DNA of 35,604 bases from assembly GCA_012838555.1 (NCBI GenBank), contig DUOZ01000100.1, positions 1 through 35,604 on the forward strand, written 5' to 3'. The notes under the pieces were generated by a model. It did no database searches. It was not told the DNA's origin and saw only the letters and a program-made list of their open reading frames with translations. This document shows, in pieces, positions 8,088 to 35,604 of this stretch. A program made the translations under genes and the position numbers. The DNA is from a bacterium (GTDB taxonomy: Bacteria; Bacillota_I; Bacilli_A; RFN20; DUOZ01). How positions within the stretch are numbered: the stretch's first letter is position 1; every line of letters begins with the position of its first letter.

Positions 8088-8824
8088 TAATACATAACCT
8101 CCACTAAATATAGGCCTTCTGCAGGTGCTTTATAAGGACATGGTTTATCTTCTTTTTTATCTAGTCTTGTTGTAATTTCTTCAAGACTAATCTTATTTTC
8201 GCCTATATGAATTAAAGTACCTACCATCATTCTAACCATATAACGAAGAAAGCCACTTCCTATTATATCAAAAATTACGATATCGTTTTCCACTTTTATC
8301 GAAAATTCATTAATAAACCTAACAAAACTAGTTACTTCACTATCTTTAGTCGAAGTAAAATTCCTAAAATCATGTTCACCAACAAAAAGACAAGCTGCTT
8401 CTTTCATCTTGTTTATATCTAACCTTTTACCATATTGATAAATGTAATTAACTTTTAAAGGATTATATTCACCCATATTTAAATAATAGCGATAATGCTT
8501 CTTTTTAGCATCAAATCTAGCATGAAATGATGAATCAACCTTGTAAACGTCTTTTACATAAATATCCTTAGGTAAATTACTATTTAATGCTTTTTTATAA
8601 TTTTCAGGTTCAATCTCAAAAATCGAATCAAAATGAATAACTTGATTTAAAGCATGAACGCCAGCATCAGTTCTTCCAGAAGCATATACTTTTATTTCTT
8701 GTTTATTGATTTTTGATAAGGCAATTTGTAATTCCTCTTGAACTGTTCGACCATTATTTTGAATTTGATATCCCACAAAGTTAGAACCATCATAACTAAA
8801 AATAACTTTGTATCTTAACGCCAT
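8087..8824 (-). CDS. truA: tRNA pseudouridine(38-40) synthase
   Basis: SYDGSNFVGYQIQ, catalytic SGRTDAGVHA, FHARFDA, GFLRYMVR, APAEGLYL; follows ecfT as in other Firmicutes. Confidence 0.96.
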   Translation of the reverse strand: MALRYKVIFSYDGSNFVGYQIQNNGRTVQEELQIALSKINKQEIKVYASGRTDAGVHALNQVIHFDSIFEIEPENYKKALNSNLPKDIYVKDVYKVDSSFHARFDAKKKHYRYYLNMGEYNPLKVNYIYQYGKRLDINKMKEAACLFVGEHDFRNFTSTKDSEVTSFVRFINEFSIKVENDIVIFDIIGSGFLRYMVRMMVGTLIHIGENKISLEEITTRLDKKEDKPCPYKAPAEGLYLVEVMY

Positions 8825-12228: not shown

Positions 12229-12717
12229 TCACCCAAGAACTTTAATACTAACTAGATTACTAAATTGTTCTAAATTAATTAACATTTCATTATCATAAAA
12301 AGAATAAGTAACTAAGGCTTGCGAAAAAGTTTGATTACTCGAGGAAGGAAATACCTTACACATGAAAACAATATTAATTGTTTCATATGTTGCTAAAGAG
12401 CCTATATAAATACCATTGCGCAAATCACCTTTTTTATAAAGTCGTTTATTAACATAAACCGAGGTGATAATTGGGATTAAATTTTCAGAAAAATTAAAGA
12501 AGACTTTGGTGTTAACTAAAGCTTTTCTTCCTAGATTATGAATATTTAAATTAAAAGTACAAGGTTCTCCTGCATAAGCACTATTTTTAAAACATTCATA
12601 ATCAACCATTAAATTATGACTAAGGAGTTCAACTTCAACATCATTAGAACTTATTTTCCTAATCTTATTAAAGTCCTTATACGTTACAATTGAACGATTT
12701 TTAACTAGTTTATCCAT
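12229..12717 (-). CDS. protein with a single DUF11-like repeat, no signal peptide
   Basis: SNDVEV..AYAGEPCTFNLNIHNLG..SVYVN..GIYIGSL..SNLVSI follows the repeat pattern of the divergent neighbour. Confidence 0.6.
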   Translation of the reverse strand: MDKLVKNRSIVTYKDFNKIRKISSNDVEVELLSHNLMVDYECFKNSAYAGEPCTFNLNIHNLGRKALVNTKVFFNFSENLIPIITSVYVNKRLYKKGDLRNGIYIGSLATYETINIVFMCKVFPSSSNQTFSQALVTYSFYDNEMLINLEQFSNLVSIKVLG

Positions 12718-30277: not shown

Positions 30278-31927
30278 TTGAAAAAAGCATGGTATAAAGA
30301 AGGAGTCGTTTATCAAATTTATCCACGTAGTTTTAAAGACTCTAATAATGATGGTATCGGTGATTTAAAAGGTATCATAGAGAAACTCGATTATTTAAAA
30401 GAATTAGGGATCGATATTATATGGCTATCCCCAATTTATGAATCACCACTAGATGATAATGGTTATGATGTTTCTGATTATCGAGCGATTTTAAAAGATT
30501 TCGGTACCATGGAAGATTTTAAAAAGTTAGTTAAAGAAGTTCATAATCGAGGAATGAGAATTATTTTAGATATGGTTATTAATCATACCTCAAGTGAACA
30601 TAAATTCTTTAAAGAAGCTTTAAGTGATGTTAATAGTAAATATCGAGATTGGTATTTCTTCAAAAAAGGAAAGAAAAACAAATTACCTAATAACTGGACT
30701 TCCTTCTTTGGTGGAAAAGCTTGGACTTATAATAAACAAACTGATGATTATTATCTTCATTTATTCGCACCTTCTCAACCTGATTTAAATTGGGAAAACG
30801 AAGAAGTTAAGAAAGAGTTCAAGGATGTTTTAAAGTTCTGGCTTGATGAAGGGGTTGATGGTTTTAGACTAGATGTAATAAACATTTTATCTAAAAGAGA
30901 AGGTCTACCTAATGGTAAGAAAAGACTTGCTTTAACGGGTAAAGAACATTATGTAAACGGACCTAAAATGCATCAAATCCTTCAAGAATTAAATGAAGAT
31001 GTGTTTAATAAATATGATTGTTTTACGGTCGGTGAAACGGTCTTAATTGATACAAAAGAGGCTTTAAAATACACCGGCGGAGACAAACGAGAACTTGATA
31101 TGCTCTTTAGTTTTGAACATACTTCAGTTGATACCATTAACAATAAATGGTTTATTAGAAAATTTAGACCTTATCATTTAAAAAAAGTTTTAGATAAATA
31201 TCAAGAAGCACTTAATAATAAAGGCTGGAACACCTTATTTTTTGAAAACCACGATCAACCCCGCGTTGTATCTAGATGGGGAGATACAAAAGACTATTAT
31301 AAAGAAAGTGCGAAATTACTAGCGACTATTTTATTCTTCCAACAAGGAACGCCATTCATTTATCAAGGTCAAGAAATCGCGATGACGAATGCTGATTTTA
31401 AAGAACTAGATGAATACAAAGATGTTGAAACTCACAACATCTATAAATTAGGTAGAGAGGTTTTCCATTTCACTCATAAGCGAATGATGAAAAAGATCAA
31501 ATATATGTCTAGAGATAATGCGAGGACACCAATGCAATGGGATGATTCAAAAAACGCTGGTTTTTCTAAAGGAACTCCTTGGATTAGGGTTAATTCAAAT
31601 TATAAAAAGATAAATGTTAAAAATAATATTAAGGATAAAGATTCAGTTTATCATTATTATAAAAAAATCTTTGCTTTAAGAAAGAAATACCCAGTAATTG
31701 TTTATGGTGATTATAAACCATTATTTAAGAAGTCTAGATATTTATATGCTTATGAAAGAACTCTAGATAATAATTCATTAATAGTAATTTCTAATTTCTC
31801 TAAAAAGCAAAGAAAATTCCCAAAACTTAACTTAGATGACTATAAAGTTATTTTACAAAACTATAAGACTTTAGATAATAATTATTTAAAACCATATGAA
31901 GCTAGAGTCTATCTAAAAACTAAGTAA
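30278..31927 (+). CDS. malL: GH13 oligo-1,6-glucosidase / alpha-glucosidase (GH13_31-like)
   Basis: YQIYPRSF, DNGYD, VINHTS, QPDLNW, GFRLDVIN, TVGE, ENHDQPR, SRDNARTPMQW; TTG start follows AAGGAGGT. Confidence 0.88.
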   Translation: MKKAWYKEGVVYQIYPRSFKDSNNDGIGDLKGIIEKLDYLKELGIDIIWLSPIYESPLDDNGYDVSDYRAILKDFGTMEDFKKLVKEVHNRGMRIILDMVINHTSSEHKFFKEALSDVNSKYRDWYFFKKGKKNKLPNNWTSFFGGKAWTYNKQTDDYYLHLFAPSQPDLNWENEEVKKEFKDVLKFWLDEGVDGFRLDVINILSKREGLPNGKKRLALTGKEHYVNGPKMHQILQELNEDVFNKYDCFTVGETVLIDTKEALKYTGGDKRELDMLFSFEHTSVDTINNKWFIRKFRPYHLKKVLDKYQEALNNKGWNTLFFENHDQPRVVSRWGDTKDYYKESAKLLATILFFQQGTPFIYQGQEIAMTNADFKELDEYKDVETHNIYKLGREVFHFTHKRMMKKIKYMSRDNARTPMQWDDSKNAGFSKGTPWIRVNSNYKKINVKNNIKDKDSVYHYYKKIFALRKKYPVIVYGDYKPLFKKSRYLYAYERTLDNNSLIVISNFSKKQRKFPKLNLDDYKVILQNYKTLDNNYLKPYEARVYLKTK

Positions 31928-31955
31928 AAGAAAACTCCAGGAATTCTGGAGTTTT
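31928..31955. terminator. terminator between convergent GH13 and lipoprotein genes, probably bidirectional
   Basis: AAAACTCCAG-GAATT-CTGGAGTTTT perfect 10 bp inverted repeat. Confidence 0.85.
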
Positions 31956-31963
31956 AGTAAAGA

Positions 31964-33100
31964 TCAGTCATGATGATTTTTATGATGTGGAATTTTGTCT
32001 CTTATTTCTTTTACCTTTTCTTTGATTTTTTCTTTAACTTCCTCTTTTATCTTTTTTATTTTTTCATTACGACATTTAAAGAATTCTTGTCCATCAAAGA
32101 AATGATAACGATAGAGTGTTTCTCCAGTTTCTTCATCAGTAATGATAAAGACTTTGATATCAATTACATTACGGTCTTTAATGATTCTAATTTTAATTAA
32201 TTGTTTACCTTCTTCTTCAATCTTTTTGAAACTGTAGTCTTCATAACTTCCATTTTCATATAATCTTAATTTAATTTCTGTTTTAGATTCAACGTTTTTA
32301 ACATTAATATCAGAAATTGATTCGATTTTACCGTCTTTAACAATTCGATATTTAAAGTTCTCTTTATCTTCATTACTCATATGAGAAACTCTTACATAAT
32401 TAAAGCGGTCAATAAATGAAATAAAGCTTGTTTTAGTAAATGTTTCATGAGCGATTCTAACACCTTTGATTTCATAATGTTCTTCCCCGACAATCATTAT
32501 TCCTTCAATAAGTGTAGAGACTTCATCAATTTTATCTCTTATACGGTCTAAATGACGAACTTCTTTAACCTTACTATGATAATTTTCAACGATTTCATCA
32601 ACTGACTCAACTTCATTACCAACTTCTTCTTCATCAGTGATATCCTCTTCAATTTCATCTTCAACATCAATAATTACTTCATTATAATATAGAACATAAC
32701 TTTGAGTTTCTCCTAGTAAACTTTTTGTTGAAATAATCATCATATAATCAAATTCTTCAATATCAGAATTTGAGATATTACTACTTAAGACACCTTCATC
32801 ACTTAATAAACTTTCAAATAGATTTACATAATAATTAATCTTTTCAATTTCTTCTTCACCGACTTCATTCCAAGCTAGATTCATCGCTTTAGATGCATTT
32901 GTCTCAGCTGACATATCAAATTGAGAAAGTAGTGACGCACTAGTTAATGCAGAAAAACCATAAACATCGTCGACATCATTAATTTCTGTTATGTATTCAC
33001 TCTTTTTTTCAGTATCTACATCTGAAGAATTAAGAGTTGAACAACCTCCTAGGATTAAAAGTGATACTAAAATTGATAAAGCAAAATTTTTCTTTTTCAT
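31964..33100 (-). CDS. uncharacterised lipoprotein with an acidic loop and a Lys/His-rich C-terminus
   Basis: MKKKNFALSILVSLLILGGC lipobox; D/E-rich segment; ends KIPHHKNHHD; RBS AAGGAGG. Confidence 0.75.
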   Translation of the reverse strand: MKKKNFALSILVSLLILGGCSTLNSSDVDTEKKSEYITEINDVDDVYGFSALTSASLLSQFDMSAETNASKAMNLAWNEVGEEEIEKINYYVNLFESLLSDEGVLSSNISNSDIEEFDYMMIISTKSLLGETQSYVLYYNEVIIDVEDEIEEDITDEEEVGNEVESVDEIVENYHSKVKEVRHLDRIRDKIDEVSTLIEGIMIVGEEHYEIKGVRIAHETFTKTSFISFIDRFNYVRVSHMSNEDKENFKYRIVKDGKIESISDINVKNVESKTEIKLRLYENGSYEDYSFKKIEEEGKQLIKIRIIKDRNVIDIKVFIITDEETGETLYRYHFFDGQEFFKCRNEKIKKIKEEVKEKIKEKVKEIRDKIPHHKNHHD

Positions 33101-33138
33101 ATCTTTTCCTCCTTACTAGTAAAAACTAGCATACATAT

Positions 33139-33170
33139 ATATAACTCTTTAAGATTTCATTTTGTTGGTA
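33139..33170 (-). promoter_or_regulatory. putative ECF-sigma promoter of the lipoprotein gene
   Basis: TACCAACAAA-N15-GTTATAT, with both boxes and the spacing identical to 34897..34928. Confidence 0.75.
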
Positions 33171-33174
33171 AAAT

Positions 33175-34290
33175 TTATTTATGTTGATGATGTTGTTTTT
33201 TAAAATCATTCTTTTTCGTATCAAATTCACTTTGTAAATCATCTAATTGCTTCTTTAACAAGTCCTTATAATCATCTAATAACACTTTAAGTGCATTAAT
33301 TTCATGCTGATCTTTAGGATCGTTAATTTTAAACTCCCAATCTAAATGATTTTCTAAAATGAAATTATTAAACTTTTGCTTTACTCTATTTAAGAAAACT
33401 TTATTTTTAATTTTAGGTAAATCTTTTAAGATATCTTCGATTTTATCAATTCTTTCATTGATTAAATCCCTAGTTTCATTAAACTCTTTTCGAAACTCTT
33501 TAAATTCATCTTTTAAGGCATCATGATAATTATCGATTTCTTCTTTATTAAAACCATTAATTAACTCATTAAGTTCTTTAACTGAAAGAACTCTAGCTTG
33601 TTCAAAGGTTAAAGTTTGATCTTTATCACATGCTTTAGTGATTAATAAATATCTACCAACACTAACACCTAGTTCTTTAGCATGATTTTTAAAATCATCA
33701 TTATTACTCATTAAAACATTAACACGATTATCTAATAATTGCTCCTGCAAATAAATAGTAATAGCATTTTTTATTAATAAAGAAACTTCATTTTCTTTTA
33801 CCTCATCATCATTAATCGCTGTTATCATTAAAGCATTATCAGTTGTATCTTTATTAATATAACCTACTTCAATAGCTAAATTTACAATTTCTTTAACAGC
33901 ATCTTTAATATCTAAATCAATAAGTTCACATTCAAATAGTAACAACATCGCTTCTTTATTTAATGGACGATAAGAAGTTACTTTATTATCTTTATCAATT
34001 TCTAATTCAATTGATGGATTAATATCAATCGAAACATATGTGTTTAATTCTTCTACCTTAACAATACTTGATGGTGTAAAGGCATCTTTAAAAAGTGGAA
34101 TAATTGTAAATAAAACAAGTGCCGCAGCAAAAACTAAACTAATAAATGAACGCTTCATTTTCTTTTTAACTATATAATCATTACTAGGAGAATAGTAACT
34201 ATCAAGCTTTGACATTAATTCATCTTTAAGATTAGGAACGATAGAATCTGCTTCTATTTTTAATCTTTTTTCAATTTCTTTAATCTTCAT
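33175..34290 (-). CDS. membrane anti-sigma factor with an RsgI-type extracellular (SEA-like) domain and a coiled-coil C-terminus
   Basis: about 48 aa cytoplasmic N-terminus, one TM, then YVSIDINPSIELEIDKDNKV..LNKEA..AIEVGYI..KELGVSVGRY; overlaps the 3' end of the sigma gene. Confidence 0.8.
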   Translation of the reverse strand: MKIKEIEKRLKIEADSIVPNLKDELMSKLDSYYSPSNDYIVKKKMKRSFISLVFAAALVLFTIIPLFKDAFTPSSIVKVEELNTYVSIDINPSIELEIDKDNKVTSYRPLNKEAMLLLFECELIDLDIKDAVKEIVNLAIEVGYINKDTTDNALMITAINDDEVKENEVSLLIKNAITIYLQEQLLDNRVNVLMSNNDDFKNHAKELGVSVGRYLLITKACDKDQTLTFEQARVLSVKELNELINGFNKEEIDNYHDALKDEFKEFRKEFNETRDLINERIDKIEDILKDLPKIKNKVFLNRVKQKFNNFILENHLDWEFKINDPKDQHEINALKVLLDDYKDLLKKQLDDLQSEFDTKKNDFKKQHHQHK

Positions 34291-34825
34291 TACTAATTCC
34301 CCCTTTCTCTAAATGTTCTTTTAAGGTATTCAAAGCTTTTAAATATTTCCAAGTAATTGTACTTATAGGTTTATTTAAGATTTTAGCAACTTCTTTACGC
34401 TTCATATTTAAGAATAAACACATCGCTAGAATCTGATATTCATCATCAGGTAAAACTTTTTTGGCTAGATCGATGGTCGGAGTATCAATATCACGTTCAT
34501 TTTCTTGGACTCCAAATAAATACTCATTTTCACTAACATCAATTGATTGTTCTTTCTTTCTAACTCTTAATTCATCTAGTGAAAGATTTCTTACTATTGT
34601 TGTAATCCATGCTCCTGGATTTGAATTATCTTGATATGATGATATTTTTTGCATGATTTTAAGATAGGTATTTTGCATAACATCTTTAGCTAATTCTCTA
34701 TTTTTTAAAATCGATAAAGCATAATGAAACACGTATTTATGAGTCATATCATAAATAGGTCCAAATGCTTCTTTTTTACCGTACTTAAACTCTAACATCC
34801 ATTTATTTAATGCTTGGTGATCCAT
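34280..34825 (-). CDS. ECF (group 4) RNA polymerase sigma factor
   Basis: only region 2 (AKDVMQNTYLKI..AWITTIVRNLSLDELR) and region 4 (KEVAKILNKPISTI..ALNTLK), about 181 aa; ATG 34825 follows GGAAGGT. Confidence 0.9.
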   Translation of the reverse strand: MDHQALNKWMLEFKYGKKEAFGPIYDMTHKYVFHYALSILKNRELAKDVMQNTYLKIMQKISSYQDNSNPGAWITTIVRNLSLDELRVRKKEQSIDVSENEYLFGVQENERDIDTPTIDLAKKVLPDDEYQILAMCLFLNMKRKEVAKILNKPISTITWKYLKALNTLKEHLEKGGISNED

Positions 34826-34851
34826 ACACTTACCTTCCATCTAATAGTCAA

Positions 34852-34860
34852 ATTATACCA
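34852..34860 (-). promoter_or_regulatory. extended -10 SigA-type promoter of the ECF sigma gene
   Basis: TGGTATAAT, with TATAAT ending 26 nt before the start codon. Confidence 0.55.
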
Positions 34861-34896
34861 CACTTTTTCAAAAGTAAATGTAGTCATCACTCAATA

Positions 34897-34928
34897 ATAT
34901 AACGATGAAGTGATATTGTTTGTTGGTA
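34897..34928 (-). promoter_or_regulatory. putative autoregulatory ECF-sigma promoter
   Basis: TACCAACAAA-CAATATCACTTCATC-GTTATAT, which contains the general ECF pattern AAC-N17-CGT. Confidence 0.75.
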
Positions 34929-34966
34929 GGAAAATCTTTTAATGTTATAATTTAGAGGGTGAAAAT

Positions 34967-35604
34967 ATGGACATACTTAATTTAATCAAAGATGGAGACA
35001 TCATTATTACTCCCTATGAAGTAAAAAAGGAAATATTAAAAGAAATATCAAAAAGGAAATTATTCCATCACTTTCGTTTTTTCACTAAAAAGGAAATTAT
35101 TGAAAAGAGTTTATTTATTTATGATTTAAATACAATTGCTTATTTAATGGAAAATTATGAGTTTAGAGTTGAAAATGCCATTATGTATTTAAATAATTTA
35201 TATTATATAGATAATAAAACTTATAATATTGAAAAATTAGACTTTTTAGTCAAAATAAAAAAAGAATTAACTAGAATAAAGTTACTTAAAGAAGATAACT
35301 TATTTAAACAGTTAGTACTTAACAAAAGAGTGATTGTTGTTGGTTACCAAATTATTGACAATTTATTTAATAGAGCATTAAATGAACTTAATAAAGTCTC
35401 AGAAGTTCAAATAATTGAGTTTGAAAATAAAGAAATCCCTAAATTAGATGTCTTCCATTATCATCATTTAAATGATGAAGTTAACGGTGTTGCAGTTAAA
35501 ATTTGTGAGTTAATCGAACAAGGAATTAATATTAACAAGATAAAGCTTTCTAATGTAAATAATTCTTATTATTACACTTTAAATAAAATTTTTAATTTAT
35601 ATAA
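34967..35604 (+). CDS. N-terminal part of a large protein, possibly an AddB-like/PD-(D/E)XK nuclease family member; runs off the right edge
   Basis: Absent from the ORF track; open frame from ATG 34967 (RBS GAGGGTG, TGTTATAAT at 34943-34951): MDILNLIKDGDIIITPY..DEVNGVAVKICELIEQGININKIKL resembles the AddB E-V-x3-A-x2-I-x2-L...G...I pattern. The nuclease domain itself is not in the window. Confidence 0.5.
   Translation, partial: MDILNLIKDGDIIITPYEVKKEILKEISKRKLFHHFRFFTKKEIIEKSLFIYDLNTIAYLMENYEFRVENAIMYLNNLYYIDNKTYNIEKLDFLVKIKKELTRIKLLKEDNLFKQLVLNKRVIVVGYQIIDNLFNRALNELNKVSEVQIIEFENKEIPKLDVFHYHHLNDEVNGVAVKICELIEQGININKIKLSNVNNSYYYTLNKIFNLY

Follow-up and report, generated by a model that had tools for sequence, protein, structure and literature searches.

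The window analysed here, a stretch of 35,604 nucleotides (nt) on contig DUOZ01000100.1 (assembly GCA_012838555.1) from an uncultured anaerobic-digester bacterium of the RFN20 lineage, contains two identical bipartite words, TACCAACAAA-N15-GTTATAT. One is located upstream of an operon for a sigma factor of the extracytoplasmic function (ECF) type and its membrane-bound anti-sigma factor, and the other upstream of the lipoprotein gene that follows. The same signal was found before related sigma genes in many relatives, which makes it very probable that the ECF sigma factor encoded next to the two words recognises them, and that the lipoprotein, together with an HtrA-like protease encoded elsewhere in the genome, is under its direct control. 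Such a circuit is of an ordinary kind, found here in a little-studied bacterial group.

Copy 1, at positions 34897 to 34928 on the minus strand upstream of the sigma operon, consisted of TACCAACAAA (34919 to 34928; the -35 region, with CCAAC and an A-tract), a spacer of 15 nt and GTTATAT (34897 to 34903; the -10 region). Copy 2, at positions 33139 to 33170 on the same strand upstream of the lipoprotein gene, matched the same pattern exactly. The full readings on the minus strand were TACCAACAAA-CAATATCACTTCATC-GTTATAT for copy 1 (34928 to 34897) and TACCAACAAA-ATGAAATCTTAAAGA-GTTATAT for copy 2 (33170 to 33139). Together with the preceding C, the -10 region of copy 1 read CGTTATAT, which gives the ECF-type spacing CCAAC-N17-CGT, and GTTATAT in copy 2 was preceded by an A (AGTTATAT). 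Both copies were intergenic and each was oriented toward the next gene. The end of copy 1 was separated by 56 nt from the longest open reading frame (ORF) of the sigma gene, which starts with the ATG at position 34840, and by 71 nt from the more likely start codon, the ATG at position 34825. Copy 2 began 4 nt past the stop codon of the anti-sigma gene, inside the 74-nt gap between this codon and the lipoprotein start, and ended 38 nt 5' of the lipoprotein ATG at position 33100. The spacers and flanks of the two copies were unrelated in pairwise alignments, so the copies are not parts of a duplicated segment, and a repeat search revealed no longer repeat family spanning both of them. A first-pass annotation of the window had described the identical 10-mer and 7-mer, their 15-nt spacing, the unrelated spacers and the intergenic, oriented positions, and the sequence and the alignments agree with it on each of these points. 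No Rfam match was obtained at E ≤ 1 in the region 31800 to 35604.

The bipartite word was rare. A pattern search with up to 3 mismatches returned exactly these two matches in the window and no further one, in line with the earlier statement that a third copy is missing from the window, and a third exact copy was identified on another contig. In the genome as a whole (1,628,973 bases, 151 contigs, 29.3% GC), the 17 specified bases occurred 3 times exactly and once with a single mismatch, as compared to none in a reversed-genome control at up to one mismatch. The counts in the genome and in the control were 5 versus 4 at 2 mismatches and 85 versus 58 at 3 mismatches. The word TACCAACAAA occurred 22 times in the genome and was followed by GTTATAT exactly 15 nt later in 3 cases, and only about 0.002 exact copies were expected by chance, as estimated from the base composition. 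All three exact copies were intergenic and located 19 to 59 nt 5' of a start codon on the coding strand.

The third exact copy (contig C91, positions 12355 to 12386 on the minus strand, equal to 1498 to 1529 in the extracted locus L003) was located 19 nt 5' of a gene for a lipoprotein of 276 amino acids (L003, 651 to 1481, minus strand), the signal peptide of which ends with AVSC. The top NCBIfam matches of this protein were HtrA/DegP-type serine proteases, all of which scored below the model cut-offs. Like copy 1, the third copy read CCAACA...CGTTATAT. Directly behind the HtrA-like gene is an ORF of 190 amino acids (L003, 79 to 651, minus strand), the start of which overlaps the stop codon of the protease gene. 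The copy with one mismatch, TATCAACAAA-N15-GTTATAT (contig C121, 524 to 555, minus strand), was located 21 nt 5' of an ORF of 110 amino acids. This ORF begins with MKKNLKICLVASSGGHLEEL, and an extended -10-like sequence, TGGTATTAT, was noted further upstream. A search of the same genome for the -10 variants of the relatives (CCAAYAAA-N15-(G/A)T(A/T)TA and CCAAYAAA-N15-(G/A)TTTA) yielded 2 matches, each within an ORF, the same number as in the control.

Homologues of the sigma factor (E ≤ 1e-8) were identified in 126 of the 201 genomes sampled from the order, including that of the window; none of the others belonged to the same family or genus. For the best 29 non-self loci, we examined the 225 nt that precede the position matched to sigma residue 1 in the alignment. 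The 8-mer CCAA(C/T)AAA was present on the coding strand upstream of 24 of the 29 orthologous sigma genes, where the background expectation was 0.058 per region, and on the reverse strand in none. Two loci from one genus, L029 and L033, carried the exact 17 bases of the window. Among the five misses, L027 contained the 8-mer about 250 nt upstream, L039 contained CCAATAAT, and in L038 (genome G048) the 8-mer stood before a lipoprotein gene located 5' of the sigma gene, which corresponds to a lipoprotein-sigma operon; nothing was found in L023 and L043. By their labels, the genomes of these loci span five families of the order, and since the sampled genomes are related to each other, the 24 of 29 loci do not represent independent events. 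Genome scans of five relatives with one mismatch gave counts close to the control, and 25 of the 30 loci examined were located inside ORFs. One candidate from these scans (L087) was a terminator beside a tRNA gene and was rejected, and another (L099) precedes a gene for a membrane protein of 67 amino acids.

A GTDB-wide scan with a profile of eight sigma orthologues and one genome per species resulted in 80 loci, several of which come from genomes that overlap with the order-level set. The loci were labelled Bacilli, Izemoplasmatales, Acholeplasmataceae, Mollicutes/Tenericutes, Christensenellaceae and Coprobacillus sp. CAG:698, among others. In the 78 loci with enough upstream sequence, the 8-mer CCAAYAAA was present in 65 and the full pattern CCAAYAAA-N15-(G/A)T in 58, in each case at most 300 nt upstream, with the full pattern on the reverse strand in 2. 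When 63 distinct sequences were aligned by the 8-mer alone, the position 15 nt later was occupied by G in 49 and by A in 9, followed by T in 60. After the GT came (T/A)(T/A)A and then a TG located 11 to 12 nt past that G (51 and 47 of the 63 sequences). A motif-free search for enriched upstream 8-mers ranked CCAATAAA first (55 of 77 regions, 34-fold enrichment). The family consensus can be written as tttaCCAATAAAAa-N-ttGT(T/A)(T/A)A...TG, or as CCAATAAAA-N14-GT(T/A)(T/A)A, and the sequence in the window, CCAACAAA...CGTTATAT, is a variant of it. A bipartite promoter with AAC and CGT elements upstream of the sigma factor's own gene was thereby found to be kept among the orthologues, as expected for a member of the ECF family.

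The sigma gene is located at positions 34280 to 34825 on the minus strand and encodes a protein of 181 amino acids when read from the ATG at position 34825, which was selected because of a GAAGG ribosome-binding site and the alignment with the orthologues; the longest ORF, from position 34840, encodes 186 amino acids. The protein contained only the sigma2 and sigma4 domains, and its size falls within the range of about 170 to 200 amino acids expected for ECF sigma factors. Region 2 was identified by Pfam Sigma70_r2 (E 8e-14, 51.6 bits) and region 4 by a weak match to Sigma70_r4_2 (E 0.0016, 18.5 bits, under its cut-off of 25.7). The protein scored 69.3 bits against the NCBIfam model TIGR02937 (sigma70-ECF), for which the cut-off is 42.9, and the ECF models aligned along its full length, although none of the 25 best specific NCBIfam models (of 83) reached its cut-off. 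The best solved relative was SigW (5wuq), with residues 7 to 170 aligned.

The first-pass annotation had brought up SigI promoters next to those of ECF sigma factors, and with regard to SigI its reading needs a correction. No SigI model was included among the 25 best NCBIfam matches (of 83), no SigI chain was found among the solved relatives at E ≤ 0.001, and the SigI model at E ≤ 1e-5 matched genes on contigs C109, C141 and C151 of the same genome but not this one. An hhalign comparison with five SigI-like proteins aligned only 44 columns in domain 2, with a probability of 19.7%. From its sequence, the protein is accordingly classified as a canonical ECF sigma factor and not as SigI-like. A total of 7 sigma-70-family genes were identified in the genome, of which only this one is of ECF size and type. 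The other six encode a primary sigma factor of 405 amino acids, a SigK-like and a SigH-like protein (NCBIfam names) and three proteins of sporulation-sigma size (232, 240 and 270 amino acids; named by eye). Sigma genes were located on contigs C109, C151, C82, C141 and C114, and two of the sporulation-size genes adjoin on C151. The presence of SigK-like, SigH-like and three sporulation-size sigma factors in a genome of 1.63 Mb with 29% GC suggests an endospore-forming lineage.

Taken together, the single ECF-type sigma gene, the CCAAC-N17-CGT arrangement, the 8-mer at 24 of 29 and 65 of 78 loci and the full pattern at 58 of 78 loci all favour the earlier proposal that the word is the cognate, autoregulated promoter. 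Several observations weigh against this assignment. The lipoprotein copy has AGT instead of CGT at the -10 position, and the -10 region is AT-rich, with a TATATT that agrees with TATAAT at 5 of 6 positions. The TACCAA in copy 1 is the reverse complement of TTGGTA, which is the -35-like hexamer of a sigma-70-type promoter-like site on the plus strand (34923 to 34951; TTGGTA, 17 nt, TATAAT with a TG extension) that faces a divergent ORF at 34967 to 35602; because this hexamer is shared, the divergent promoter and copy 1 would overlap back to back. Furthermore, the HtrA-like target is not conserved, with weak homologues in 8 of 100 other genomes and the motif at none of the loci fetched, and the protease is a putative lineage-specific target. 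Finally, the strict motif CCAACAAA-N15-GTTA gave 14 matches in 40 relatives as compared to 20 in a backwards control. These matches were mostly located inside ORFs, and one alone, in G010, precedes an ECF gene. Since the strict motif is no more common than in the control, the conservation is visible only with the degenerate family motif. The scan of the genome and of orthologous loci that had been proposed as a check thus bore out the rarity of the word in the genome and the conservation of its degenerate form, but not an excess of its strict form in the relatives.

If the word were instead the operator of a DNA-binding regulator, either a repressor or an activator, that travels with the sigma locus, this would also account for a conserved word upstream of regulator genes, and an A-tract with an AT-rich second half would be a suitable target for many helix-turn-helix proteins. 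The evidence for a sigma recognition site is all computational, which leaves some room for such a regulator. However, no regulator gene apart from those for the sigma and anti-sigma factors was conserved in the loci examined, and the word keeps a strict orientation, being present on the reverse strand in 0 of 29 and 2 of 78 loci. It also lacks dyad symmetry and combines a fixed spacing and a variable spacer with the AAC-N17-CGT geometry of ECF promoters. We consider an operator very unlikely.

Even less likely is a reading in which the words serve as promoters for a different sigma factor, of the housekeeping or sporulation type, and place the ECF gene under its control. The genome does encode SigA, SigK-like and SigH-like proteins and three sporulation-size sigma factors, the -10 half contains TATATT, and TATAAT was overrepresented 2.7-fold in the regions upstream of orthologous sigma genes. 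On the minus strand, however, neither site was recognised as a sigma-70-type promoter in a consensus scan. The sequence AACAAA, located 17 nt 5' of TATATT, shares only 2 of 6 positions with TTGACA, and a TG extension is missing. Moreover, the conserved positions are CCAAY and GT rather than a TATAAT hexamer, and the ECF gene is accompanied by the motif in several families of the order as well as in metagenome-assembled genomes labelled Izemoplasmatales and Acholeplasmataceae.

That the identity of the two copies is due to chance or is the functionless trace of a small duplication has a negligible probability: short AT-rich words do recur in a genome with 29.3% GC, and shuffled versions of the window produced a mean of 0.40 matches and at least 2 matches in 6 of 100 cases, but these figures refer to the 3-mismatch setting and understate the improbability of two exact matches, and the three exact genomic copies against 0.002 expected, the empty reversed-genome control at up to one mismatch and the retention of the motif at orthologous loci all speak against it.

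Recognition of the word by the ECF sigma factor is also consistent with the genes that follow the motif in the relatives. In the closest relative (G005), the sigma factor of which is 46% to 47% identical to that of the window, the order at the locus is promoter, sigma gene, gene for an anti-sigma factor with an RsgI_M domain, promoter and gene for a homologue of the window lipoprotein (26% identity, E 1.4e-17). These two sites were the sole zero-mismatch matches to the family pattern in the G005 genome, the one before the lipoprotein gene being located at 8446 to 8471 in L048. Across the 80 GTDB-wide loci, the family pattern occurred 98 times on both strands. It preceded the sigma gene in 58 cases, a homologue of the window lipoprotein in 7, a different lipobox protein in 14 and some other ORF in 11, and in 8 cases no ORF followed. 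The two-site layout in G005 and the copies before lipoprotein homologues make the lipoprotein a well supported candidate for a direct output of the sigma factor. The first-pass annotation had named it as the direct output, which holds in so far as it is one, and the copy before the HtrA-like protease gene indicates that it is not the only one.

We scanned 13 non-homologous proteins encoded downstream of the pattern in the relatives and all 13 contained an RsgI_M/SEAL domain (68 to 102 bits) with a D(I/V)NPS motif directly after the signal peptide (loci L129, L137, L139, L144, L159, L160, L162, L163, L167, L172, L181, L186 and L187); a further such protein is encoded at 370 to 1257 on the minus strand in L061. 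In these relatives, SEAL domains are apparently located on secreted or lipid-anchored proteins, as outputs of the ECF sigma factor, rather than on anti-sigma factors. The predicted second output in other lineages is a SEAL-domain lipoprotein instead of a lipoprotein of the type in the window.

The anti-sigma gene (33175 to 34290, minus strand; 371 amino acids) is located at position +1 relative to the sigma gene and overlaps its stop codon by 11 nt. The protein consists of a cytoplasmic N-terminus (approximately residues 1 to 48), one membrane helix (approximately residues 49 to 67, by eye), an RsgI_M/SEAL domain and a coiled-coil-like C-terminal part. The RsgI_M domain (PF23750) was identified at residues 84 to 218 with an E-value of 5.2e-28 (98.7 bits), and no RsgI_N family was found in Pfam at E ≤ 0.01. 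An Asn-Pro motif at Asn91-Pro92 (DINPS; VSIDIN|PSIELEID) is the predicted site of autocleavage, and the solved periplasmic domains of RsgI2 and RsgI9 (8heq, 8hdj) aligned from Pro92, where their chain B begins. Autocleavage of RsgI at the Asn-Pro bond is described in the covered parts of two reports (PMC10328401; bioRxiv 10.1101/2023.06.27.546760). A gene for an M50 site-2 protease was also identified in the genome (193 bits).

The N-terminus of the anti-sigma factor carried a motif that was conserved in the +1 proteins of 12 ECF loci. A model of the complex between the sigma factor and residues 1 to 46 of the anti-sigma factor scored 0.67, as compared to 0.02 for the best of 3 controls. The modelled peptide was placed between sigma2 and sigma4, the 3 runs shared at least 91% of the contacts, and the pLDDT of the partner was at least 79. 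Of 157 solved complexes, 116 came up to the mark of 0.67, as did 2 of 215 mismatched pairs; both counts are approximate here because our own alignments were fed to the complex model. Since complexes of ECF sigma and anti-sigma factors have already been solved, the score may reflect likeness to them and is not proof of binding. A cognate anti-sigma factor is encoded next to the sigma factor and is predicted to bind it.

A single-pass, anti-sigma-like protein was encoded at position +1 in all 16 orthologous loci examined. The RsgI_M domain scored above the cut-off in 6 of these proteins and below it in 2, and was not detected in the other 8. In 101 genomes of the order, SigI was above the cut-off in none and RsgI_M in 29, and a comparison of coordinates placed 21 of the 35 RsgI_M matches in the order just downstream of an ECF match. 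The SEAL-type anti-sigma factor in this order thus appears to be the partner of ECF sigma factors, not of SigI.

The lipoprotein gene (31964 to 33100, minus strand) encodes a protein of 378 amino acids with a signal peptide and the lipobox LLILGGC. No Pfam or NCBIfam family was assigned to it. None of its 22 homologues had a name or a Pfam domain, and the neighbours in the Atlas were likewise unnamed. Homologues adjoin orthologous sigma genes in L048, L065, L066 and L067. An AlphaFold2 model of modest quality (mean pLDDT 66.4) contained two helices followed by a long beta-meander, and a Foldseek search of the model against PDB returned nothing at E ≤ 0.001. A likeness to porin-like barrels was rejected, as the best hit in a wide search with VIA-align (Z 8.3, root-mean-square deviation 4.9, 142 aligned) was at background level. 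The only terminator-like hairpin in the region 31800 to 35100 was located after the lipoprotein gene (31931 to 31955, minus strand), with no such site between the anti-sigma and lipoprotein genes, so the sigma, anti-sigma and lipoprotein genes would form one transcription unit with an internal second promoter.

DNA runs with the labels digester, bioreactor and biogas metagenome contained the region, and six RNA runs contained part of it. The RNA data consist of assembled contigs from four metatranscriptome runs, and DNA may be present in such libraries. The lipoprotein gene (X15, 31976 to 33080; X16, 31974 to 33107) and the sigma gene (X15, 34258 to 34821) were covered by contigs, as was the anti-sigma gene in parts, and one contig crossed the junction of the sigma and anti-sigma genes (X17, 34156 to 34403). 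The segment 33115 to 33177 was uncovered and nothing extended past 34821, which places both predicted starts outside of the coverage. Since contigs cannot show 5' ends and reach neither start, the RNA is neutral toward the promoter model.

An extended -10 element of the housekeeping-sigma type, TGGTATAAT, was noted at positions 34852 to 34860 on the minus strand, between copy 1 and the sigma start codon; it was not listed by the consensus scan because it lacks a -35 hexamer. In 13 orthologous leaders of at least 46 nt, TGnTAnnnT was found in 5 and TATAAT in another 2, giving 7 of 13 in total. The element is where the first-pass annotation had placed it, and the role ascribed to it there, to supply basal expression via the housekeeping sigma factor, is plausible. 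In several loci, a short hairpin was seen by eye right after the conserved TG(A), such as GAGCC-ATA-GGCTC in L024 and GTAAGCGC...GTGCTTAC in L032, which may represent a 5' stem-loop of the transcript.

The following mode of action would fit these observations. RNA polymerase with the sigma factor encoded at 34280 to 34825 would read both words as promoters, with domain 4 recognising the -35 region (CCAAC and the A-tract) and domain 2 the -10 region ((C)GTTA), located 17 nt past the AAC. Transcription would begin about 11 to 13 nt after the G of the GT. The TG conserved 11 to 12 nt after this G makes positions 34891 to 34892 for copy 1 and 33133 to 33134 for copy 2 on the minus strand the likely starts, close to the positions that had been guessed beforehand (34891 and 33133). 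Copy 1 would make the sigma/anti-sigma operon self-amplifying, copy 2 would provide the lipoprotein gene with its own sigma-dependent start on top of read-through, and the third copy, on C91, would add the HtrA-like lipoprotein protease to this small regulon. At rest, the N-terminus of the membrane-bound anti-sigma factor would hold the sigma factor, and its SEAL domain would cleave itself between Asn91 and Pro92. Once the ectodomain is lost, a site-2 protease could cut within the membrane and the sigma factor would be set free.

If so, the analysis provides a precise recognition sequence and a three-operon regulon, consisting of the sigma/anti-sigma operon, the lipoprotein and the HtrA-like lipoprotein protease, for the single ECF sigma factor of an uncultured anaerobic-digester bacterium, and the family consensus holds across many small-genome lineages of Bacilli. 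To our knowledge, the autocleaving SEAL sensor has so far been tied to SigI. The SEAL anti-sigma factors beside ECF sigma factors, in an order where SigI was found in 0 of 101 genomes, would widen the known use of this autoproteolytic sensor. More interesting as a lead is the picture at the family level, which joins a canonical ECF sigma factor to a SEAL anti-sigma factor and to lipoproteins, some of them with SEAL domains, as outputs. A broader and tentative proposal is that these elements make up a widespread and apparently undescribed module of low-GC Bacilli lineages, with a canonical ECF sigma factor, an autocleaving SEAL anti-sigma factor, a promoter of SigI layout (a specific CCAAY word, an A-tract and then CGT(W)) despite a sigma4 domain unlike that of SigI, and conserved lipoprotein outputs, present in the order of the window and in metagenome-assembled genomes labelled Izemoplasmatales, Acholeplasmataceae and Mollicutes; we regard this joint reading as possible but on balance doubtful. 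The free-standing SEAL lipoproteins, which would be among the outputs in many relatives, might feed back on the sensor. ECF sigma/promoter pairs are in use as orthogonal switches, to which a further well-defined pair could be a helpful addition.

The autoregulated promoters of ECF sigma factors, such as SigW, SigM and SigX in Bacillus subtilis, contain AAC in the -35 region and CGT in the -10 region, approximately 16 to 17 nt apart. The system in the window resembles group IV, the ECF factors, in that the sigma factor has domains 2 and 4 only, that the +1 gene for a membrane-bound anti-sigma factor overlaps the sigma gene, and that CCAAC-N17-CGT is located before its own sigma gene, with further copies before genes for envelope proteins (the lipoprotein and the HtrA-like protease). 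It differs from the SigW, SigM and SigX type by a -35 region with CCAAY and an invariant A-tract rather than GAAC or GGAAC and by a -10 region that runs on as an AT-rich TTATAT, and from the usual ECF anti-sigma factors by an ectodomain with an RsgI-type SEAL domain. Autoregulation itself is the usual situation for ECF sigma factors, as stated in the part of the ECF classification considered here (PMC7826278). Among the literature matches listed, there was no description of a pairing between an ECF sigma factor and a SEAL anti-sigma factor, of an ECF promoter in Acholeplasma or of this promoter.

According to the covered part of the source, the -35 region of SigI promoters contains an A-tract and their -10 region CGWA, with a specificity region upstream (PMC10575876). 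Here too, the -35 region has a specific word with an A-tract behind it, and the -10 region begins with CGT, with CGTA in many of the relatives, which fits CGWA; the -10 region in the window, however, is CGTT or AGTT and not CGWA. The anti-sigma factor resembles RsgI in its periplasmic/SEAL domain and in an Asn-Pro motif that directly follows the membrane helix and is predicted to be cleaved, whereas the sigma factor is of the canonical ECF type and not of the SigI type (TIGR02895), in which a SigI C-terminal domain takes the place of sigma4. A true SigI/RsgI pair was noted in a genome of the same class (L203, upstream of position 1441), with ACCCC...CGTATAT before sigI, the -10 region of which resembles the CGTATAT of many ECF-family members.

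The closest counterpart to the promoter is found in the ECF213 group. In the covered part of Text S2, the words CCAATA did not occur and CCAAT occurred once, in the -10 region of ECF29, and there was no mention of Acholeplasma, Coprobacillus, Haloplasma or names beginning with Erysipelotrich, nor were member organisms named for the subgroups s3 and s5. The same part of the text gives a predicted motif of CCAACA (-35) and CGTTATCTA (-10) for ECF213s3/s5, which belong to the class Bacilli (Casas-Pastor et al. 2021, NAR, PMC7826278, Text S2). As far as this description goes, s3, s5 and s6 differ from the system in the window in that their authors found no anti-sigma gene at +1, where a single-pass anti-sigma factor is encoded here, and the family consensus, CCAATAAAA...GT(T/A)(T/A)A, departs from the s3/s5 motif. 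Like these subgroups of Firmicutes, the sigma factor has relatives labelled Bacilli and allied lineages. The -35 region of copies 1 and 3 is identical to that given for s3/s5 in the covered text, and their -10 region, CGTTATAT, is identical in the first 6 of 9 bases. The ECF213s3/s5 motif is thus nearly equal to that of the window, and a promoter of this type had already been predicted computationally.

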